Source: Bdellovibrionota bacterium (GTDB lineage Bacteria; Bdellovibrionota_C; UBA2361; JBIIDM01). Taken from it: a stretch of 64,000 bases of DNA. This document shows, in pieces, positions 6,487 through 62,364 of this stretch. A program made the translations under genes and the position numbers. Every line of letters begins with the position of its first letter. Position 1 is the first letter of the stretch. The stretch covers positions 8,769 to 72,768 of the forward strand of contig JBIIDM010000001.1 in assembly GCA_044238365.1 (NCBI GenBank). Direction: 5' to 3'. The notes under the pieces were generated by a model. It worked only from the letters and a program-made list of their open reading frames with translations, did not search any database and was not told the DNA's origin.

Positions 6487-6569
6487 CTAACTTTGCAACC
6501 TAAGTTTCGGATAAGAAAAAAGGTAAGTGACTAAAGCAATTTTAGTCACTTACCTTTTTTCTTATCCGA
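6487..6569. repeat. Perfect 39-bp inverted repeat with a 5-nt loop (mini palindromic element). Its ends are related to the termini of the 180-bp MITE-like elements.
   Basis: The sequence aacctaagtttcggataagaaaaaaggtaagtgactaaa / gcaat / tttagtcacttaccttttttcttatccgaaacttaggtt was read directly. The arms resemble the element A/B terminus aacctgagttcgacgtaagaacaaaggtaa. Confidence 0.9.
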
Positions 6570-6688
6570 AACTTAGGTTGTCAGGTATTTTCCAGGTAGG
6601 GCGGCGTGTTAGAACACGTTTTGGAGCAGCTCAAATCTAAGGATGGCAATAATACAATTTTTTGGTGCTATATAGTGTCTACTCGATT

Positions 6689-8816: not shown

Positions 8817-8832
8817 AGGACATGTATTTAAT

Positions 8833-9008
8833 AACCTGAGTTCAACGTAAGAACAAAGGTAACTGGTTGAAATTGCTTTACAAACGAGGTGAGAGTGATA
8901 TCAAAGCGCAGGCTGAAGCTTGTTACGTCGAGCATTTTATATCATGAGCAACGAAGTGGATGAAGTAATTTCATCCATTTACCTCAGTTCTTACGTCTAA
9001 CTCAGGTT
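8833..9008. mobile_element. MITE-like palindromic repeat element, copy A (~176 bp, non-coding).
   Basis: Terminal inverted repeats aacctgagttcaacgtaagaac ... gttcttacgtctaactcaggtt enclose an internal imperfect palindrome. It is about 90% identical to copy B at 18979-19160. It is intergenic, between the coiled-coil gene start and the VWA gene end. Confidence 0.8.
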
Positions 9009-18951: not shown

Positions 18952-18978
18952 GATGTCAATATTCCCAAAAAAATTATT

Positions 18979-19160
18979 AGCCTGAGTTCGACGTAAGAAC
19001 AAAGGTAAATGGTTGAAATTGCTTTAGAAACGAGGCGTGCAGTGATATAAAAGCGCAGGCTGAGAAGCTTGCTACGTCGAGCATTTTATATCATGAGCAA
19101 CGAAGTGGATGAAGTAATTTTAACCATTTACCGCACAGTTCTTACGTCGAACTCAAGTTA
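18979..19160. mobile_element. MITE-like palindromic repeat element, copy B (~182 bp). It is inserted between the ABC ATPase and permease genes of one operon.
   Basis: The ends are cctgagttcgacgtaagaac ... gttcttacgtcgaactcaagtt. The internal sequence aligns to copy A over its full length. The element abuts the ATPase stop codon. Confidence 0.8.
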
Positions 19161-22690: not shown

Positions 22691-22814
22691 CTCTTTGTTA
22701 CTCAAAAGAAGACTTATAGATTCCTAGTAACTCTACTCAGGTGCCCTCAACATAAATGCGCCCCAAAAGCGAGCTAACCAGCTGTAACTGCCAGTGATTT
22801 TTCAAGGTCGGGGA

Positions 22815-22912
22815 AAGTGATTGTTTTGTGAATGAGGCGTGGTACTCCAGGTCGCAGTGAACAAAATCAATCACTGGACGAAGAGATTGGGAAAATACCT
22901 GAGCAGTTACCT
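22815..22912. repeat. Degenerate or chimeric repeat fragment (copy D) sharing modules with element C.
   Basis: gaggcgtggtactccaggtcgcagtga (22834-22860) matches 36276-36303 in about 25 of 28 positions. It also shares gacgaagagat and a cctgag..cagttaccttt end-like segment. A local 14-bp inverted repeat flanks the shared module. Confidence 0.6.
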
Positions 22913-23785: not shown

Positions 23786-23949
23786 CTTAAAAAAATTTAA
23801 AACACAACGTTCAAACCCAGACGATACGCAAAAAGGGCCTTAAGTGACTCTGATTACCTCCTCTCTTCTCATATTATAAGTTGCTCGACCTAGCATGCTA
23901 TGCCGCGCTAATCTCATTAACGCCTGGTGTCTAAAGTAATTCTATCCCG

Positions 23950-23976
23950 TTACCTTTGTTCTTATCCGAAACTCAG
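23950..23976. repeat. Solo terminal-repeat remnant of the mini-palindrome subfamily.
   Basis: ttacctttgttcttatccgaaactcag closely matches the right arm of the 6487-6569 element (ttaccttttttcttatccgaaacttagg). No partner arm is visible nearby. Confidence 0.55.
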
Positions 23977-24102
23977 CTTATTACGGTGCTACCCATTTAG
24001 AGGAAATTTTAAAACTGTTACAAAACACGACGCTTCTGAGGTATGATGCTATGCCGATACTAATCGTGGCATCCTAAATTAAAGAAAGAAAAGAAAAAAA
24101 CA

Positions 24103-33326: not shown

Positions 33327-33491
33327 AAAGAGCAGCCTTGCGGTTTAAAGCGGCTCCATATATTTGAAATTACAAAGAATTTAGTGATTTTTGGTGACAA
33401 TCAAATATCACCGATACGATGAGATCCAAAATCGCTAAATTCTTTGTAATTTCAGCTAGATGGGCCACTTCAAACCGCAAGGCTGCTCTTT
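33327..33491. mobile_element. Second, unrelated palindromic repeat-like element (~165 bp).
   Basis: The ends are aaagagcagccttgcggtttaaag ... ccacttcaaaccgcaaggctgctcttt, a perfect 19-bp core inverted repeat. The internal sequence ttgaaattacaaagaatttagtgatttt pairs with aaaatcgctaaattctttgtaatttcag. It lies in the divergent promoter region between the membrane protein and the Wzc-like gene. Confidence 0.75.
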
Positions 33492-33863: not shown

Positions 33864-36167
33864 GTGTCGAACAAACATCCAATTCCATATGGCTTTACCC
33901 CTGTTCGGTCATCCGACAGTTCGGACGCCCGGTTGCATAATCAGCTTGTAATACCACCCCATAGGGGCCAACAATTTCCGGTGTACGACGACGCTCTTGA
34001 AGAAGAGAAGACCTTAGCCGATTACCTCGCTATCCTCAAAAAATACGTCAAGTTTCTGGTCGTTTCAACGCTTGTATCAGTGTTCGCCGCGGCAATATAC
34101 GTTCTAGTGACCACCCGTGAATATTCTGCGACAGCAACCCTTCAGATTGATACCTACCTTCCAACGCTTGTGGGCGTCGCTCGGGAAGACGTACTCCGTC
34201 AGCAAACATCAGAAGAAAACTATATATCAAACCAGGTTGCGGCTCTTAGAGGCTACCCTCTTGCGGATCGGGTACTCTCCAAGGAGGACGTGATGAAGGA
34301 ATTCCGGGAACTATATCCCAAAGATGCCAAAGAGGTTGTTCCTGATCCAGACTCTCCATATAAACACTCTGCATCGGATCTGGAAAAATACGTCAAGCTT
34401 TTAAGTATATACCCAATAAGCGACACCTCGCTTGTTAGAATTTCTACGATTACAAAGGCGCCCAAGTTTGCAGCACTATTGGCAAACACTCACGCAAAGG
34501 AATTCATCGAAATGACGAAAAGTTTCCGTCTGAGTGATGATGTTCATAACGTGGAGTTTCTCGGTCAACAAGCCGACGAACTTGAAAAGAAACTCCTCGC
34601 GTCAGAGCAAGGGCTATCAAGATATGCGGAGGCAAACGATATCATCGCATTTGAAAACGGAGATTCGGTCGAGGTCGGTAGACTAAACGGGGCCCATCAA
34701 GCTCATGAAGCTGCGAAAGCCCGGCGTATAGAAGTCGAAAGCAGATATAAAGAGGCTGAAAAGTCGCTCAAAACCGGTACAACGCTAGTCGACGATGCAG
34801 CAATTACCTCCATTCGCCAACAGCTATCCCAATCCCAAGCTGAGTACGCTGAACTGAGCCAGCGATTTAATCCTAGATATCCGAAAATGATAGAGATCCA
34901 GAACAAGATTAGGTCATTAAAGGGTCAGATAGAAATGCAACGGAAAGGGGCACTTCGAACACTGAAGGGTCAGCTGGATGCAGCACTGGCGACGGAGAAA
35001 GATCTGAAGACCGAACTGCAATCCCAAGAAACAAAAGCGTACAGAATTGCTAATGCACTGGTAGAATATAATCGCCTCAAGCGAGAACGAGACTCTCTAA
35101 AGGCATTGCAACAGAACGTTGAAACCCAGCTCCAACAAACCCGCTTTAGTGTAGACAATGCCAATAAAGGCAATATCTATCTGACCGAACCAGCCGTTGT
35201 TCCTGATTCTCCAAGTAAACCTAAAGTGAGCGTAACGCTCCTGTTAGCACTTATTTGCGGACCGATAGTTGGTGCTGCACTGGCGTTCTTGTACGAATCT
35301 TTCGACCAAACGCTAAAAGGTCCGGAAGAATTAGAGAAGGTCCTGCGAACTCCCGGCCTTGGAATCATTCCGCACTACACATTTGACGTTGCTGACTTAG
35401 CGGTGGGTGCCGACGATAACCTACCAGCCCTTGCTACCTTAAACCTTGTATCGATCAGGGAGCCGTTTTCATTAGCAAGCGAAGGATTTAGGACAATCAG
35501 AGCCGGAATTCGCCTATCCTCAGCTGATAAGCCGGTTGAAGTAATCGTGGTAACAAGCAGCGACCAGGGTGAAGGGAAGTCCACATTGGTTGCTAACCTA
35601 GGAGTCGTCTGTGCACAGGATGACGCTAAAACTATCCTGATTGATGCAGACCTGAGAAGGGCAACACTTCATAACTGTTTCGGAATTAGTCATGAAGAGG
35701 CTGGTTTGACCGAGATTCTTACAGGTCAAATGTCGCTTGAAGAATGTATTCAAAAAACTGCTGTAGAAAAATTGGATGTCCTTCCTGCTGGAGGCGCAGT
35801 GCCGAATCCTGCCGAGCTAGTAGGATCAAGAAAGATGAGAGACCTGATTAACTCGCTCCGCGAACAATACGATTATATTATAATCGATACGCCGCCGGTC
35901 GCCCCTGTCGCCGACTCCCTTGTTCTTTCTCCTCTTGCTGACGGTGTGATAATGGTGGTTCGCTCGAAGAAGACCATTAGAAAGGAAGCAAGGAAAACCC
36001 TCTATAAACTAAGGGAGTCCGGATCGAGAATTCTCGGAGTTGTTCTGAACGATGTTGAACCATCAAGAACCCTCATCAAAAGTGACTACCTTATAAAAAG
36101 CAAGCCCCGAGCACGATTCGGCAATCCGAACTGGGAGGAACCAGGAAAAAGCGACAAGGCAGCCTGA
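33864..36167 (+). CDS. Polysaccharide co-polymerase with C-terminal tyrosine autokinase domain (Wzc/GumC-like).
   Basis: Two TM segments flank a long coiled-coil periplasmic domain. The C-terminal Walker A VTSSDQGEGKSTLVANLG and DTPPV motif are present. The C-terminus has only two tyrosines rather than a Tyr-rich tail. Confidence 0.8.
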   Translation: MSNKHPIPYGFTPVRSSDSSDARLHNQLVIPPHRGQQFPVYDDALEEEKTLADYLAILKKYVKFLVVSTLVSVFAAAIYVLVTTREYSATATLQIDTYLPTLVGVAREDVLRQQTSEENYISNQVAALRGYPLADRVLSKEDVMKEFRELYPKDAKEVVPDPDSPYKHSASDLEKYVKLLSIYPISDTSLVRISTITKAPKFAALLANTHAKEFIEMTKSFRLSDDVHNVEFLGQQADELEKKLLASEQGLSRYAEANDIIAFENGDSVEVGRLNGAHQAHEAAKARRIEVESRYKEAEKSLKTGTTLVDDAAITSIRQQLSQSQAEYAELSQRFNPRYPKMIEIQNKIRSLKGQIEMQRKGALRTLKGQLDAALATEKDLKTELQSQETKAYRIANALVEYNRLKRERDSLKALQQNVETQLQQTRFSVDNANKGNIYLTEPAVVPDSPSKPKVSVTLLLALICGPIVGAALAFLYESFDQTLKGPEELEKVLRTPGLGIIPHYTFDVADLAVGADDNLPALATLNLVSIREPFSLASEGFRTIRAGIRLSSADKPVEVIVVTSSDQGEGKSTLVANLGVVCAQDDAKTILIDADLRRATLHNCFGISHEEAGLTEILTGQMSLEECIQKTAVEKLDVLPAGGAVPNPAELVGSRKMRDLINSLREQYDYIIIDTPPVAPVADSLVLSPLADGVIMVVRSKKTIRKEARKTLYKLRESGSRILGVVLNDVEPSRTLIKSDYLIKSKPRARFGNPNWEEPGKSDKAA

Positions 36168-36194
36168 GAAAATCCGGGCACCCCACCACCTGCT

Positions 36195-36350
36195 AACCTG
36201 AGTTCGACGTAAGAACTGCGGTTGCTAGGGTTCGCGAGGTTGGTTGATGTCGAGGCAAGAGGTACTTTCAGGAACGAGACGTGGTACTCCACGTCGCAGT
36301 GACGGAGAGTACCTCTTAACGAAGAGATCAGCCAACCTCGCGAACCCTAG
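36195..36350. repeat. Chimeric repeat element, copy C. It has an A/B-type left terminus plus a different palindromic module.
   Basis: It starts aacctgagttcgacgtaagaac (identical to the B terminus). It then continues with ctagggttcgcgaggttgg ... ccaacctcgcgaaccctag and an inner hairpin gaggtac..gacgtggtactccacgtcgcagtga..gtacctc. No right A/B terminus is present. It abuts the manC stop. Confidence 0.7.
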
Positions 36351-37790
36351 CTAAACGCGGCCGTAGACGTCAGTAAAACGGACGATATCATCCTCACCTA
36401 AGTAGCTTCCTGTCTGCACCTCAATCAGCTCGAGAGGAATCAAACCCGGATTCTTGAGATAGTGCTTGGTTCCTAAGGGGATATACGTCGAGCGGTCCTC
36501 ACCCAGCAAGATCTCCTCATCGCCCCGTCCCACTACCGCGGTGCCTTTTACAACGACCCAATGCTCAGCTCGATGGTGGTGCATCTGAATGGAGAGCTGC
36601 TGGCCCGGATGTACGGTGATTCTTTTTACCTGGAAGCGATCCTCTAGAGCTATCGTCTCATAGCTCCCCCAAGGTCGGTAGACCTTCTTATGAAACTGAT
36701 ATTCTTGGCGTCCCTGAGCCTGCAGGTGGGTTACTATCTTTTTTACCTCCTCCACTCGGTCCTTTGCAGCTATCAAAATCGCATCTGATGTCTCAACTAT
36801 CACTTGGTCGGATATGCCGAGTGCCGCAATCAAGCGTCCTTCTGAGTGGATAAAGCAACCGTGAACATCCTCTACAATTACATCACCGAGGGTTACATTG
36901 TCTGATGAATCTTTGGGTTGAATCTCCCACAGGCTTGACCACGATCCAACATCACTCCAACCAGCCTTGAGAGGAATAGTCACCGCTTTGCTCGTCTTTT
37001 CCATTACCGCGTAATCGATAGAATTCGAGGGGCTGGAATTAAAAGCATCCTCTTCAAGACGAACAAAATCCAGGTCGACCCTTCTATTTTCATAGGCAGC
37101 CTCACAAGCTTTAAGTATCGCTGGTTCAAATTGTCCAAGTTCAGATAAAAAGTTCGCTGCTCCGAATAAGAACATTCCACTATTCCAGAAGTAGTCCCCG
37201 GACTTAACGTACTCCTCCGCCACCTTTAGATTCGGCTTTTCAACAAATCGCGCTATTGGTAGCCAGGAGCCCTTTCCGGCTTCTCCCTTAACTACCTGAA
37301 TATACCCGTAACCCGTATGAGCAGCTTCCGGAACCACACCGAACGTTACCAGCTTACCGATATTAGCAGCTTCAATCCCAGACCTTACAGCCTGATGAAA
37401 AGCACCGACATCCTTGATCACATGATCAGCTGGAAGTATCAACAACAATGCCCCTGAGCCATATCTATGAATACTGTCGAGAGCGGCAACTGCTATCGCC
37501 GGTGCCGTATTCCTGGGTGAAGGCTCCAGGATAATGGTTCCTTTCCCTAAAAGACCCTTTTGCTGAAGTTCTGAAGCAACTATAAAACGATGCTCTGAAT
37601 TAGAGATTATTACCGGTGGTTGAATTTCTTCGCCAATTATATTGTTTCCCTTAACCAGCACCCGATCAATTGTTGCCCCTAAGAGGGAATCATCTCCGAT
37701 GAGTGACAAAAACTGCTTAGGAAACGCCGCCCGAGAAAGAGGCCATAAACGACTTCCCGATCCCCCGGACAAAATCACTGGAACAATCAT
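36351..37790 (-). CDS. manC: Mannose-1-phosphate guanylyltransferase / mannose-6-phosphate isomerase (bifunctional).
   Basis: The N-terminal segment is PVILSGGSGSRLWPLSR. A C-terminal cupin domain is present (HHRAEHWVVVKGTA). Confidence 0.85.
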   Translation of the reverse strand: MIVPVILSGGSGSRLWPLSRAAFPKQFLSLIGDDSLLGATIDRVLVKGNNIIGEEIQPPVIISNSEHRFIVASELQQKGLLGKGTIILEPSPRNTAPAIAVAALDSIHRYGSGALLLILPADHVIKDVGAFHQAVRSGIEAANIGKLVTFGVVPEAAHTGYGYIQVVKGEAGKGSWLPIARFVEKPNLKVAEEYVKSGDYFWNSGMFLFGAANFLSELGQFEPAILKACEAAYENRRVDLDFVRLEEDAFNSSPSNSIDYAVMEKTSKAVTIPLKAGWSDVGSWSSLWEIQPKDSSDNVTLGDVIVEDVHGCFIHSEGRLIAALGISDQVIVETSDAILIAAKDRVEEVKKIVTHLQAQGRQEYQFHKKVYRPWGSYETIALEDRFQVKRITVHPGQQLSIQMHHHRAEHWVVVKGTAVVGRGDEEILLGEDRSTYIPLGTKHYLKNPGLIPLELIEVQTGSYLGEDDIVRFTDVYGRV

Positions 37791-51637: not shown

Positions 51638-53194
51638 CTAGCTGAAAAGTTTCCTTTCTATTTCGGAGACAAGTTCTCTCACAGAAGCCTCGTCGCTGAC
51701 CTTGTTTGCGACGACACTCGCGGCGTGGATTACGCTGGAGTGGTCTCGTCCGCCAAATTTTTCGCCAATCTCGGGGTAGGAAGCTGTTGTATGTTTCCTG
51801 CAGAGGTACATGGCTACATGTCGAGGAAACGAGAGATTTTTTGTCCGTCGTTTAGATATTATTTCTGACACTTTGATTGAGAAGTGTTGTGCTACCGCCT
51901 TCTTGATGTCCTCTATGTTGACTGATATTTTTTTCGGTTCTAGTAGGGGTTTGAGGGCCACTTGGGCCATTTGCAGCGTAATTGGAACCTTCTGCAGGCT
52001 GCTAACGGCATGCAATCTGGTTAGTGCTCCCTCTAATTCCCTAACGTTTGAGGAGATATTCTCGGCTATAAGGTATGCAACGTCCTCGGGAAGGTGAAAG
52101 TTCTCAAGGAGAGCTTTGCGTTTAAGAATTGCAGCTCTAGTCTCAAAATCTGGCGCTTGCAGATCCGCCGTTAAGCCCCAGGCAAAGCGGGTCTGAAGCC
52201 GCTCTTCAATTCCATCAATTTCGGAAGGAATTTTGTCAGAAGTCATTACGATCTGACGCTTGCAACTATAAAGGGCGTTAAACGTGTGGAAGAACTCTTC
52301 CTGGGTTCTTTCCTTTCCGCTTATGAACTGAATGTCGTCAATAAGGAGTATCTCAATGCTTCGTAGCCTTGTCTTGAATTCCTCCATTTTTGCGTTCCGA
52401 AGCGCCTGAATGAGCTCATTCGTAAAGGCCTCAGAAGAAATATAAAGCACTTTCGAGTTGGGGTTTCGGCTGAGAGCGGCATTTCCAATCGAGTGTAGAA
52501 GGTGTGTTTTGCCAAGCCCTACGCCGCCGTAGATAAATAGAGGGTTGTAGCTTTCACCTGGTTGTTCAGCGACTCTACAGGCAGCGGCGTTACAGAATTG
52601 ATTGTTGCTTCCAACTACAAAGCTTTGAAAGGTGTATTTGGGGTTTAGGTTGTTGAAAGTGTGGTGATCGTTTGGCGTACTGGTAGATTCGACGGGCTCG
52701 GCGGTGGGACTGGCGTGGCGTCGTTTTATAACGGTTCGAGATGATCCATCAAGTTGGCTTGCTAGTAGCGATTCATTTGGTGCCTTTGGTTCCTGAACAA
52801 CGTACGTGAGAATCAAGTTGGGAACGTTAAGCAATTCCTTAAGAAGCGTTTCTATTCGCCGGGAGTAGTTTCGCTCTATAAGTTGGCACTGAAGTTTTGT
52901 CGGCGCAGAGATTGTTAGGGCTGTTTCGTCAAATTCCCTTACGTCACCTTCTGTAAGTTCAACGATTAGCGGTTCGAAGTATGCGGAAAAGGCATGTTGA
53001 CCTACTTCGGTCTTAATCACCTCCAACATGTCATTCCATGCGTTTACTACTAATCCTTCGTGAATGGGTTCTCGGACAAAAGGTACGCCGTTTTGAAGTT
53101 GGTTGTAGGTGGTGTTCTCTCTAGTTGTGTTTTTGGTTGTGTCACTAGTAGTTGACTGGGTTGTTGATAAAAATAAATCTGGCGCAATATTCAT
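51638..53194 (-). CDS. dnaA: Chromosomal replication initiator DnaA.
   Basis: The AAA+ Walker A is GGVGLGKTHLLHSIG. The C-terminal DNA-binding domain carries GGRDHSSVIHA. The N-terminus has a T/N-rich low-complexity ~50-aa extension before domain I. Confidence 0.95.
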   Translation of the reverse strand: MNIAPDLFLSTTQSTTSDTTKNTTRENTTYNQLQNGVPFVREPIHEGLVVNAWNDMLEVIKTEVGQHAFSAYFEPLIVELTEGDVREFDETALTISAPTKLQCQLIERNYSRRIETLLKELLNVPNLILTYVVQEPKAPNESLLASQLDGSSRTVIKRRHASPTAEPVESTSTPNDHHTFNNLNPKYTFQSFVVGSNNQFCNAAACRVAEQPGESYNPLFIYGGVGLGKTHLLHSIGNAALSRNPNSKVLYISSEAFTNELIQALRNAKMEEFKTRLRSIEILLIDDIQFISGKERTQEEFFHTFNALYSCKRQIVMTSDKIPSEIDGIEERLQTRFAWGLTADLQAPDFETRAAILKRKALLENFHLPEDVAYLIAENISSNVRELEGALTRLHAVSSLQKVPITLQMAQVALKPLLEPKKISVNIEDIKKAVAQHFSIKVSEIISKRRTKNLSFPRHVAMYLCRKHTTASYPEIGEKFGGRDHSSVIHAASVVANKVSDEASVRELVSEIERKLFS

Positions 53195-58496: not shown

Positions 58497-61400
58497 TTAG
58501 GCTGCGTCTTCGAGTTGAAGAGAGGGAACTTCTGAGATAATCGAAGATATCTTTTGTAAGTTTATTAGAACTCCGTCATCTGGTTTTATCGTTAAGCGTT
58601 CCGATATCAGGAGGTTAAGACGCTCCTGAAAGCCTTCCAGCTCCTGGAGTGTCGTATTTATTGAAGCTGCCATTCTAGTGCTTGTGGGTACGCTGTCTGC
58701 CAAATTCTGGATTTTTCGATATTGCGGTTTTAGATATTTATCCCTAAGTGTTTTTAAGACAAAAGGTGTAAACAAGTGTCCGTAAGTGAGAGCTTTAAAA
58801 GATTGCTTTGGTCCACTACACAACTCCCAGTAGATAGGCCGCTTTCCGTACGTCTTTGCGTGTTCCTTAAAAAAATCCTTGAAGAAATAGTTTCGTAAGA
58901 TATTTTCGGCATCCTCGACCTGCGATGTATAACCCGCGCTGAAGAGTCGTTGGGAAAGGTAGTTTAGATTTTTATTTAGGTTTTTTTTGCCATAAGTAAG
59001 GCCAAGGAACACCTTAAATAACTCATACAAATCTCGTGAGGAATCAGAATCAGCATCTTTCGAAAGTAGGACCAGAGAATCCTTCGGACTGCAAGGGTGA
59101 GCTCCAGGCGAATCCTGAATGCCAACCATGTCGAGCTTATATCTACCTAGAATAACCCCAACACCATAGGAGATTAGTCGCTTGACGCAGTCAACTTCTG
59201 ACCAGACCGGGTACGTCGAGGTGCTTCCTTCTGACTCAGACTCCTTTGGTTCAGGTAGTCCAAAGGCTTGTGTGAATATTAGATTGTTCTTGTTTTCGAT
59301 TGATTCAAGCTTCGTTCGTTGGGATTTTCGCATTTCCAGAAAGCTTCTGATGGAATCTTCCAGAGAGATGCTCTTTTCTTTCGGAATAAAGGGCAGCCTT
59401 AGGAATGTCCAGTTTTCTTCGTGGTGCGACATCTCCTCTTTCATTATCTCAACGGCCCGCTCGAAAAGGGGTTTCAGCTTTGGTTGCAATGGCTCTAGGC
59501 CTTTTGCTGGCACCGGTAGGGATGAGATATTTCCCGTCTGGAAATGAAGAGTAGGATTTATCGCTTTTATAAATTTTTCGGCTACCTTACTGCAAAGGTA
59601 GCAGCAGACCGCCTCGAAAACGTCATCCGATGGAAAGATCCCCGATCCGGAAATATCACTGATAAACCCGTAAGGGAGGTATCGTGCTCCAAAGTGACTC
59701 GAACTTACATCCGACCAGGTAACGCATCTTCTAAATTGAAATGCAGGATCACCCAGAGTTCCCTTTGAAGTCTTCCGTAGAGTATGCAAAAATTCAGATA
59801 TTTCTTGGCCGTCATTTTCAAAGTTGATTACATAATGGTGGTTGCCATACCATTGACGGTATTTTCCTCCTTTGTTGTAGGGGAACCATTTTTTACCCGA
59901 TAGGGCAGCTTCTTTTCGAGAAGTACACTCAAAGGCGATCGATTCTTGTGATACTTCAAACCACCGTCGTATAAAGCGCGCATTATTTGAGGTCTGTATC
60001 CCCACGCGTGTAGGATATTTATCACCCAAAAGCGAGTTTTCCCTAAAGGCATCAAAGGCCGCATCTTCGAGCCAGAATGATAGGGGCTTTTCCGGGAGCG
60101 CGTTAAAGTCTTTGTTCGAGCGGAAGTATAGCCAACCACATTCCGGATAGGTAATTGCTTCAATTACTTTGGGTGATTGTACGTCTCTTCCCTTAAAAGG
60201 TTCCAGATTGATGAACACCCCTTTAAAATCTTCAATTCGCTTTTTCTGTAGAGTGAAGGTGCAAATAGGGACGGTAGCGCCATCAAATGCTGAGTACTGA
60301 AGCTTTATAAGTGATGTTATTGTTGTGTTATTTAATACAAAGTCTCTAAGGTTGCGGTACGAAGTGATGAACATCCAAACAAATGGACTCATAAACCCAA
60401 TATGCCCATCATCCTTTGTAAGTTGCCAGTTTCTGATAATAAAAGCAGAGAACATATCTCGGCTGTAAGCCGCATAGTTCGCGTTTAGGTAGCTTCTTAA
60501 ATCATCGGGATAGTATTTCGAACTTAGGTAGGGTGGGTTTGCAAGGACGCAGTCGTATTGAGAGCACAATAGCAGGGCTCGAAGTACCAGTTGCATTAGA
60601 GCGAGAGCATGTTTTCGGGCCGAGGCGTCTTTGGTAGCTATTACGTGATTTAGGAAGTGCACAGCCGTTGTTAGCAATATTTGTTCATGTGCGGGTACAA
60701 TAGTAAGGGACCCCAGTGATGATGCATTTGAAAAATAAGCAGCAAACCGGATAAAGTCATCTTTGCTGATAGACTCAACTATCTGCCCGTTCTCAACACA
60801 GCTGGGGACTCCATAGCGGGTTTTGCCTTTAAATCGACTTACCGTTTCGCTATCTTTTGGGAGGATTTCAGTACAGGCTGCGTTGATCTGAGCTTTGTCG
60901 ACACTCTCTAGCGAGTAAATGTGAGGCACCGGAGTGTCAAAACCATTCAAAATCTTCGGATTGTCTATTCGGGCTCGCATTAGTAAGGCAAAGCTGGCCA
61001 TTTGGGCAGCTCGCTCATCGATATCAAGACCATAGAGGTTTGAATTTAAGATTTTACCCGCGATTTCGGATGGTGAATAGCCCATTTCAAGATACATATC
61101 TTTTAGTGTATCAAAGGCTTCTACAAGAATATGACCTGAACCGCAGGCTGGGTCAAGGATTGTAAGGTTTTCGGGGTTAAGGGGATCTAATTGAGATTTT
61201 GTCCCTTTGGAGCGCTTACTCGTTAGATTTTGCTCGGAAAATTCCGGCATAAGATATTCCCAACGGCTCTTAAGGACCGGTGACCGGTGTGAGCCTAGCC
61301 AGGTTTTTCCGAGGGTGTTCTGGACAAGATAGCGGACAATCCAGCGGGGAGTAAACAGCTGGGTGGCAGCCGGAATATCGCCGGGTTCGAGTTTTTTTCC

Positions 61401-62072
61401 AGTGAGCTCGCGCTTTCTTTGCGCGATATAGTACTGGTAGAGCCAGCCAATGATTTCCACCCCCTCTAACCAATCGGATTCGGGTATTGAAACGACTAAG
61501 TCTCCGATCAAAGACTCTTCTCCAAGAAGAGTGTTCGGTAGCAGGGAGGAAAGCGCTAGTGTTATCTCTTCAAAAAGAAACGGCATAGCACCGTGTAGCT
61601 CGTTACACTGGGAGATAAGAAGAGTTCTAAATATGCTTTCGTTCGACTTTCCCGTTGCTACCATTTCCTTGAGTTGAATAATGTCCCCTGCGTGTGGAAA
61701 TTTCGCGACTTTTTTTGATAATACGCGGAGATTGCTTAGGCTAGGGTCAGTTGCATGGCTCAGGATCTGATGAGAAAGGAAGCCATGAACCTCCATGTAC
61801 CGAAGGGCTACGAGGCGGTTGAACCAAGTATATGAGGTTCGTTCGATTACATCATTGAATGAGTGTGCAGAGAAGAGTTGGGTGAGTTCTTCAAGTATGA
61901 GAGTACACTCATCTTCGGTATAAAATCCGGTAGATTTAAGGACCTTCGATGCCTTTTCAGAAGGGCGAGACCGTTTCGGAGAGAATCCGAGTGAATTTGC
62001 CCGAGAGGCGATAGCTTCGGTGAAGTTTTCTCGAGCTTTGACCGCATATTTTTTTAAGGGTTTAATATTCAT
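58497..62072 (-). CDS. Large PglX-like N6-adenine DNA methyltransferase (BREX PglX / type IIG family), with no partner BREX genes in the window.
   Basis: 1191 aa. The N-terminal KKYAVKARENF ... SYTWFNRLVALRYMEV block matches what I recall of PglX-family N-termini. SAM motif I is ILDPACGSGHILVEAF and catalytic motif IV is VLANPPY. A long C-terminal region follows. No brxA/B/C, pglZ or brxL is nearby. Confidence 0.7.
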   Translation of the reverse strand: MNIKPLKKYAVKARENFTEAIASRANSLGFSPKRSRPSEKASKVLKSTGFYTEDECTLILEELTQLFSAHSFNDVIERTSYTWFNRLVALRYMEVHGFLSHQILSHATDPSLSNLRVLSKKVAKFPHAGDIIQLKEMVATGKSNESIFRTLLISQCNELHGAMPFLFEEITLALSSLLPNTLLGEESLIGDLVVSIPESDWLEGVEIIGWLYQYYIAQRKRELTGKKLEPGDIPAATQLFTPRWIVRYLVQNTLGKTWLGSHRSPVLKSRWEYLMPEFSEQNLTSKRSKGTKSQLDPLNPENLTILDPACGSGHILVEAFDTLKDMYLEMGYSPSEIAGKILNSNLYGLDIDERAAQMASFALLMRARIDNPKILNGFDTPVPHIYSLESVDKAQINAACTEILPKDSETVSRFKGKTRYGVPSCVENGQIVESISKDDFIRFAAYFSNASSLGSLTIVPAHEQILLTTAVHFLNHVIATKDASARKHALALMQLVLRALLLCSQYDCVLANPPYLSSKYYPDDLRSYLNANYAAYSRDMFSAFIIRNWQLTKDDGHIGFMSPFVWMFITSYRNLRDFVLNNTTITSLIKLQYSAFDGATVPICTFTLQKKRIEDFKGVFINLEPFKGRDVQSPKVIEAITYPECGWLYFRSNKDFNALPEKPLSFWLEDAAFDAFRENSLLGDKYPTRVGIQTSNNARFIRRWFEVSQESIAFECTSRKEAALSGKKWFPYNKGGKYRQWYGNHHYVINFENDGQEISEFLHTLRKTSKGTLGDPAFQFRRCVTWSDVSSSHFGARYLPYGFISDISGSGIFPSDDVFEAVCCYLCSKVAEKFIKAINPTLHFQTGNISSLPVPAKGLEPLQPKLKPLFERAVEIMKEEMSHHEENWTFLRLPFIPKEKSISLEDSIRSFLEMRKSQRTKLESIENKNNLIFTQAFGLPEPKESESEGSTSTYPVWSEVDCVKRLISYGVGVILGRYKLDMVGIQDSPGAHPCSPKDSLVLLSKDADSDSSRDLYELFKVFLGLTYGKKNLNKNLNYLSQRLFSAGYTSQVEDAENILRNYFFKDFFKEHAKTYGKRPIYWELCSGPKQSFKALTYGHLFTPFVLKTLRDKYLKPQYRKIQNLADSVPTSTRMAASINTTLQELEGFQERLNLLISERLTIKPDDGVLINLQKISSIISEVPSLQLEDAA

Positions 62073-62364
62073 TCAGTGATTCCATGATAGGGTAAGCGTC
62101 GGGCTTTTTTTTATCGCCGATGGTGACTACCCGGGTATTTTGATACTTACTTTGAAAAATCGGTCACAGCTAGTTGCAGCTGCCAAGGATTTCTACCAGG
62201 CCGAGTAGAACGATTGTTTTGTACATGAGCCCCTTTTGCAAATGAGCCTACATGAACTAAATCAATCGATTGACGAGGAGACTCGTGAATATCCTTAGAG
62301 CAGTGACGACCACTGAAACAATGATCAGTGAGAGTGAATACCTTAAATCAAGCTAATATGCCAA

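Follow-up and report, generated by a model that had tools for sequence, protein, structure and literature searches.

In the 64,000-nt stretch of DNA analyzed here (hereafter the window), the spacer separating two convergent genes, a wzc-like ORF and manC, is filled by a strongly palindromic sequence, which raises the question of what kind of element this is. The original prediction regarded it as a chimera, in which the left terminus of the A/B repeat type had been fused to an unrelated palindromic module, and suggested that its core may be a small structured RNA motif. Based on comparisons with other copies in the window and in related metagenome contigs, we consider it most likely (probability of about 0.8) that this sequence represents a palindromic MITE, i.e., a miniature non-autonomous DNA transposon, and that it is an immobile relic.

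The window covers the chromosomal replication origin, with the GC skew flipping at ~52 kb. The genes that define this context are as follows:

51638-53194, minus strand: dnaA
49138-50199: RecF-like gene, downstream of dnaA
46558-49023: gyrB, downstream of dnaA
28611-31148: gyrA

The closest named relatives of the GyrA protein (~64% identity) are from Bdellovibrionota, Oligoflexia, and 'Deltaproteobacteria' MAGs, and the sequence itself is known from metagenomes only. A Pfam scan of 30 window ORFs detected neither a transposase nor any other gene of a mobile element. Two other repeats are present in the window. Seven tandem 15-nt units (GCGCCACCACCAGGC-like) at 165-305 probably represent a Gly/Pro-rich coding repeat on the minus strand. 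An unrelated 133-nt palindromic repeat (TTTGAAATTACAAAGAATTTAGTGATTTTTGG...) occupies 33343-33475, in the spacer upstream of the wzc-like gene.

The spacer of interest spans 36168-36350 in its entirety. The copy that it contains is designated c1, and its nested hairpin, or rod, extends over 126 nt (36225-36350); the other rods in the window are designated c2 and c3. The parts of c1 and its two neighboring genes are as follows:

33864-36167, plus strand: wzc-like gene, a 767-aa Wzz/GNVR/AAA_31 tyrosine-kinase-like ORF
36194-36224, plus strand: solo left terminus of a AACCTGAGTT-type (A/B) MITE, TAACCTGAGTTCGACGTAAGAAC (36194-36216) followed by TGCGGTTG
36225-36248, plus strand: 5′ arm of stem P1, CTAGGGTTCGCGAGGTTGGTTGAT, which pairs with 36327-36350 (MFE folds, columns covary)
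36249-36257, plus strand: 5′ strand of loop J1, GTCGAGGCA, a conserved purine-rich internal-loop block
36258-36269, plus strand: 5′ arm of stem P2, AGAGGTACTTTC, which pairs with 36305-36316 (folds)
36270-36304, plus strand: apical core, with J2 5′ AGGAACGA, P3, and J2 3′ GCAGTGACG, corresponding to the 28-nt core of the original prediction
36270-36277 and 36296-36304, plus strand: the two strands of loop J2
36278-36295, plus strand: hairpin P3, GACGTGG-TACT-CCACGTC
36305-36316, plus strand: 3′ arm of stem P2, GAGAGTACCTCT (folds)
36317-36326, plus strand: 3′ strand of loop J1, TAACGAAGAG
36327-36350, plus strand: 3′ arm of stem P1, ATCAGCCAACCTCGCGAACCCTAG, directly adjoining the manC stop codon
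36351-37790, minus strand: manC, with its stop codon (36351-36353) abutted by the c1 rod

The nested hairpins that had been noted by eye are borne out by stems P1, P2, and P3. The RNA MFE of 36168-36350 is -103 kcal/mol (z = -11.4), which none of 200 shuffled sequences equaled, and the ssDNA folding z-scores for the two strands are -10.8 and -9.8. Only one ORF, a 68-aa GTG frame, spans c1. The A/B-type terminus is present as well, but had been described as exact; TAACCTGAGTTCGACGTAAGAAC at 36194-36216 is identical to the termini of two complete elements in the window, A (8832-8854) and B (18978-19000), at 22 of 23 positions. An identical copy of the A/B terminus was found in contig L046. At the other end, no inverted partner was detected near 36350 when both strands were scanned with a tolerance of up to six substitutions, and the right boundary is the P1 arm, which has a weak resemblance to the left A/B-type terminus. 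The sole candidate for a target duplication is a weak 3-nt match (GCT at 36191-36193 and GCT at 36350-36352). The IS66/ISBst12-type ends described below are absent from c1, in which P1 starts with CTAGGG and the left terminus is AACCTGAGTT. The most plausible reading of this copy is an A/B-ended member that has lost one of its ends, or alternatively a rod beside a solo end, and it is probably a relic that is now immobile. Because c1 lacks both a right A/B terminus and a convincing target duplication, our claim of mobility is limited to its sister elements.

Consistent with what had been reported, the core GACGTGGTACTCCACGTCGCAGTGA recurs near 22.8 kb; the match lies at 22836-22860 and has two mismatches in 25 positions rather than three, and chance matches were absent in 100 shuffles. 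The likeness between c1 and c2 extends past the core on both sides, to GTCGRGG on the 5′ side and RACGAAGAGAT on the 3′ side, whose spacing is fixed. In addition, a degenerate third rod was found at 62200-62281. All three rods are on the plus strand, and their scores in a covariance model of the family are 124 (c1), 133 (c2), and 79 bits (c3). Furthermore, of 19 metagenome loci matched by a junction-only pattern, seven are true members; these seven are all from Ga0169931 and are close to c2. The core is not confined to the two loci first recognized, as it occurs at three loci in the window and seven in Ga0169931. The two additional window copies are parts of longer elements:

22727-22910, plus strand: c2, a complete ISBst12-type MITE, with left end GTAACTCTACTCAGGTGCCCTC (22727-22748), a C-rich spacer, and the rod (22784-22910)
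62123-62307, plus strand: c3, a degenerate member of the c2-type MITE, with left end GTGACTACCCGGGTATTTTG (62123-62142), the rod (62173-62307), and right end GCAGTGAC

The module noted at 22.8 kb is accordingly the right part of a unit of ~184 bp, in which the 3′ arm of the rod (GGGAAAATACCTGAGCAGTTAC) doubles as the right end of the element. The flanks of the seven Ga0169931 copies likewise revealed a mobile unit that extends beyond the hairpin, in which a left end (GTAACTACTCAGGTACCCTC) and ~35 nt of C-rich spacer precede the rod with its right end (GGGAAAATACCTGAGCAGTTAC); the left and right ends of this type are GTAACTACTCAGGTA and GTAACTGCTCAGGTA. Perfect 8-bp target duplications are present at three of the Ga0169931 copies, namely, L051 (CATCAACT), L046 (CCCGGATT), and L045 (CTGAATAG). 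The window copies c2 and c3 are old and have no target duplication. At the c2 site, the orthologous spacer is 49-65 nt in relatives compared to 222 nt here, and these short spacers represent empty sites.

Two observations on the surroundings of these copies may be added. At one end of contig L054 (positions 1-298), rod units are repeated in tandem at least 2.3 times, and in the inner units a C-rich spacer (TGGAACGCCCCTCCCCACAGT) stands where the 3′ P1 arm would be; this array is either a real amplification or an assembly artifact. In the window, c3 is directly adjoined by a gene encoding a 1191-aa Eco57I/MmeI-like type IIG restriction-modification protein (58497-62072).

The elements that share the left terminus of c1 fold into a rod of the same plan as c1 and c2 and have both ends present:

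8833-9008, plus strand: element A, a complete AACCTGAGTT-type MITE, with inverted ends on both sides of a homologous rod (J1 ACGAGG / CAACGAAG)
18979-19159, plus strand: element B, likewise complete and of the AACCTGAGTT type, with ATT duplicated (3 bp) at its flanks and one ABC-transporter gene on each side

Two further complete elements, L066 8904-9077 and L073 6581-6735, are nearly identical to each other, lie at different loci of one metagenome, and have A/B-like ends around the rod; the GyrA of their host relative has 84% identity. With the symmetric ends AACCTG...CAGGTT, 3-bp duplications were found at B (ATT), L066 (TAT), and L073 (TTA), and the flanks of A are imperfect. The apical loops of L066 and L073 are inverted relative to each other (AGA vs. 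TCT), which suggests a flip at the DNA level through flip-flop recombination between the arms. The two genes around element B belong to an ABC-2 transporter operon and encode its ATPase and permease; the purine strand of B is antisense to them, and the orthologous spacer in L068 (126 nt) has no match to the rod model. In L066, an HRDC-domain gene and, after it, one for a reverse transcriptase (RVT_1, 335 aa) were found at 1094-2539, a few kb from the wzc ortholog; no link between this pair and the repeats was seen.

Half elements and solo termini also occur in the window (23880-23979 and 36194-36224). The former (coordinates approximate) is the right half only of an A/B-type element, which ends in ...GTTCTTATCCGAAACTCAGCTT and represents a second truncated member. 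In addition, an 87-nt near-perfect hairpin at 6496-6582 has only the A/B-like ends (AACCTAAGTTTCGGATAAGAAAAAAGGTAAG...) around a GTAAG...CTTAC center, and is a minimal MITE.

These comparisons support the earlier view of a modular repeat family, in that homologous rods occur on GTRACTRCTCAGG ends with 8-bp duplications and on AACCTGAGTT... ends with 3-bp duplications. The part of that view which did not hold is that the module is unrelated to A and B. The A/B interior and the rod have in common J1 (CGAGG / CAACGAAG), the P2 base (AGTGAT / ATCA), and the P1 start GTAAC. Given the complete elements in L066 and L073, c1 is more aptly described as the A/B architecture minus its right end than as a fusion of unrelated parts. 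The two chassis are as follows:

chassis (a): ends GTRACTRCTCAGG with 8-bp target duplications, in c2, c3, and the seven Ga0169931 copies
chassis (b): ends AACCTGAGTTCGACGTAAGAAC with 3-bp AT-rich duplications, in A, B, L066, and L073

Terminal inverted repeats are found at both ends of all these elements and only at the left of c1. Because the two chassis differ in ends and target duplications, they imply different transposases. The element length is 126-190 bp, and three rods together with A and B are dispersed within 64 kb, in addition to the Ga0169931 copies. The 5′ J1 block (T/A)CGAGG is kept in c1, c2, the seven Ga0169931 copies, L063, A, and B, with variants in c3 (CGAGT), L065 (CGAGA), and L066/L073 (CAAGG). 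The 3′ J1 block ACGAAG aligns in 11 of 11 elements across the two chassis (alignment A2), with five of the six columns invariant; the fifth base is A in 10 of the 11, and the exception is c3 (ACGAGG). The rod belongs to a palindromic MITE superfamily of an uncultured Bdellovibrionota/Oligoflexia-like lineage. An apical hairpin and purine-rich blocks in the internal loops are common to its members, which are carried by two or more transposon chassis. The family is new, and the kind of element is already known.

Relatives with the same gene order around the wzc/manC spacer differ in what this spacer contains. In L063 (ManC 86% identical), the manC stop codon is, as in c1, directly adjoined by a rod (59 bits in the covariance model); this rod has a c1-like P1, a c2-like P2, and decayed J2 and P3, and the A/B terminus is absent. 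In L064 and L071 (both 90% identical), the rod is absent and other palindromes are found in the spacer. In L065, L069, and L070 (73% identical), a mini-rod with only P1 and J1 lies beside the wzc stop codon in reversed orientation. The wzc/manC spacer is a turnover hot spot for such elements. The rods of c1 and L063 are 66% identical, compared to 47% for manC third codon positions, and the remaining spacer is unalignable.

Taken together, the target duplications, the empty sites, and the near-identical dispersed copies show that family members are mobilized in trans, by transposases encoded elsewhere, and land in intergenic spacers. Half elements such as c1 would then arise by later deletions, nested insertions, and arm-to-arm exchange. 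For the host, c1 probably means nothing more than a very stable hairpin that the two convergent transcripts (wzc-like and manC) would carry at their 3′ ends. Among close copies, substitutions amount to 0.30 per column at both paired and unpaired positions, which fits copies free of individual constraint. Two patterns are unexplained by plain decay of selfish copies. One is the mosaic conservation between subfamilies: in c1 and c2, J1, J2, and P3 are ~88% identical, whereas P1 and P2 are unrelated yet complementary (the P2 sequence of c1 is wholly unlike that of c2), such that the purine-rich bulges (TCGAGG / ACGAAG and GAAYGAG / GCAGTGA) persist while the stems get replaced. The other is the presence of the ACGAAG block (ACGAGG in c3) in all 11 elements on both chassis.

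Such conservation would be accounted for if the rod core (J1, J2, P3, and the covarying P1/P2) were a functional structured RNA or ssDNA module carried as MITE cargo, a proposal that we regard as unlikely. The module may be a protein-binding platform of tandem G.A-type purine loops, may stabilize or terminate neighboring transcripts, or may serve the transposon itself. The covariation that the original prediction had proposed to look for among the copies was found: stems are replaced with compensation while loops are kept, with 22 of 45 pairs showing double changes, and the share of paired cells is 92.3% compared to 83.4% in shuffles and 33-51% when the partner is slid by 1-3 columns. However, covariation between arms is expected of any palindromic transposon and requires no RNA function. 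G:T pairs exceed A:C mismatches (~43 vs. 17, counts that are not independent), but recent single substitutions are unbiased (~3 of G:U type vs. 2 of A:C type), and in close copies the loops mutate as fast as the stems. The ACGAAG and CGAGG blocks are common to two chassis that differ in ends and target duplications, the L065 mini-rod retains only P1 and J1, and conservation of the rod at the wzc/manC site exceeds that of synonymous sites (66% vs. 47%); against this, the positional counterpart in L063 is without J2 and P3. The plus strand, which carries the purine-rich loops, folds 5-20 kcal/mol better than the minus strand in nearly all members, but this strand is sense to co-directional neighbors in three of three ISBst12-type copies and antisense in four of four AACCTG-type (A/B) copies. 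No promoter or terminator signature was found at the rod. A search against Rfam 15, in which the families covered include hammerhead, hairpin, and twister ribozymes, SRP, 6S, and HEARO, gave no match at the gathering score for the whole window and none to E = 10 for 36100-36420. The two strands of each purine-rich internal loop are near-direct repeats of each other (GTCGAGGAAA / GACGAAGAGA and GTGAA / GTGAA). We regard it as unlikely that selection acts on the core in its own right, as a portable structured nucleic-acid module that two unrelated chassis (IS66/ISBst12-type and AACCTGAGTT-type) acquired and spread as cargo; such a module could be a new RNA motif for protein binding, with an effect on mRNA 3′ ends, or a factor required for mobilization.

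The position of c1, which fills the spacer of convergent genes and abuts the manC stop codon, and the fact that relatives always have some palindrome at this site could point to a locus-specific bidirectional terminator of the wzc-like gene and manC, with the likeness at 22.8 kb reflecting a convergent or conserved terminator design. This is very improbable, since no U-tract follows the stem on either strand, a terminator scan gives no call, and the module is also found between divergent genes (c3) and within operons (B), with target duplications at other copies. The existence of dispersed, target-duplicated copies refutes it as an account of the element's origin; c1 may still act like a terminator in a secondary way. 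The same spacer location, together with strong hairpins on both strands and variable sequence to the right of the element, may also recall a REP/BIME-like element or an IS200/IS605-type PATE moved as ssDNA by HUH/Y1 enzymes (RAYT/TnpA), or a relic of a guide RNA (TnpB scaffold RNA or IS110 bridge RNA). We give this reading the least credence, because the family has true terminal inverted repeats and target duplications of 8 bp (c2 type, perfect) and 3 bp (A/B), which Y1/HUH enzymes and IS110 do not generate. Additionally, no tnpA, RAYT, tnpB, or IS110 recombinase gene was found in the scanned window ORFs or in the gene tables of the related loci, and the copies do not consistently follow the direction of replication (four lie left and one right of the origin, all on the plus strand). 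A palindromic MITE, now most likely immobile, remains the preferred reading of c1.

Several narrower candidates were considered and rejected. A hammerhead-like core (GAAUGAG...stem...GUGAAC) has a misfit in spacing and core and no Rfam match. Loop A of the hairpin ribozyme (GUC / AGAA) was considered by eye and dropped, as were K-turn, loop E, and sarcin-ricin motifs as possible geometries of the purine loops. For an outward promoter from TTGACG in J1, a -10 element is missing, and the block is kept in none of c1, A, and B. For the A/B type, an IS630-type TA duplication fits less well than a 3-bp duplication, given the symmetric ends. Bridge RNA and TnpB scaffold RNA were set aside given the absence of recombinase and TnpB genes and the presence of target duplications. 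An orientation bias relative to replication was not retained, given the 4-to-1 split of too small a number of copies.

Searches beyond the related contigs added no members. A scan of a genome collection with a loose junction pattern gave 42 matches, all by chance in high-GC coding DNA, with zero true members. The viral-contig scan with the core gave zero matches, and those with end-sequence patterns gave chance matches and one unrelated MITE with ISBst12-type ends (L106, described below). Plasmid BLAST gave no match, and a literature search on MITEs in Bdellovibrio found nothing relevant. An autonomous element or a transposase was found neither in the 64-kb window nor in the few short contigs of relatives that were compared.

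The value of these results lies mainly in annotation, in that intergenic hairpins around the origin of an uncultured Bdellovibrionota-like bacterium are explained as MITEs and one set of them is tied to the ends of the ISBst12 group (IS66 family). Repeats of this family also break metagenome assemblies; contig L001, for instance, ends within a rod, as is usual at repeats. Of wider interest are the homologous hairpin interiors with conserved purine-rich loops that ride on two different transposon chassis. If a function at the RNA or ssDNA level were true, they would provide an example of transposons spreading a structured regulatory module.

Palindromic intergenic MITEs are well known from other bacteria, namely, Correia/NEMIS in Neisseria, ERIC/IRU in enterobacteria, and RUP and BOX in Streptococcus pneumoniae. 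These are non-coding near-perfect palindromes of 100-200 bp with terminal inverted repeats and short target duplications. Such MITEs have many dispersed intergenic copies, are often co-transcribed as hairpin RNAs, and include modular or mosaic variants (BOX, BIME). The rod family resembles them in these respects, and we know of no sequence similarity between it and these elements. It differs from them in its host lineage, in having homologous interiors on two sets of ends, and in having purine-rich internal loops conserved despite fully substituted stems. REP/BIME and the IS200/IS605 PATEs are likewise intergenic palindromes that are frequent between convergent genes. However, those are Y1-dependent and have no terminal inverted repeats or target duplications, whereas the rod family has true inverted ends and duplications of 8 or 3 bp.

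For the c2 type, the closest counterpart is ISDge4 of Deinococcus geothermalis (ISBst12 group, IS66 family), which has the ends GTGACTACTCAGCA / GTAACTGCTCAGCA and an 8-bp direct repeat (PMC12898284). The ends GTRACTRCTCAGG of c2, c3, and the Ga0169931 copies are almost identical to these and start with GTAA (GTRACTRCTCAG), and the 8-bp target duplication is a further resemblance; c1 has no such ends. A 156-bp MITE in an IMG/VR contig (L106 5746-5901) has perfect ends of 18 bp (GTAACTACTCAGGTATCT) and is flanked by a duplication of 9 bp (CGTAAGTGC); its ends are of the same ISBst12 type as in c2, and its interior is unrelated and AT-rich. Compared to insertion sequences of the ISBst12 group, the c2-type elements have no transposase gene and are only ~184 bp in length, and their interior is a long hairpin that contains a third, internal copy of the end sequence.
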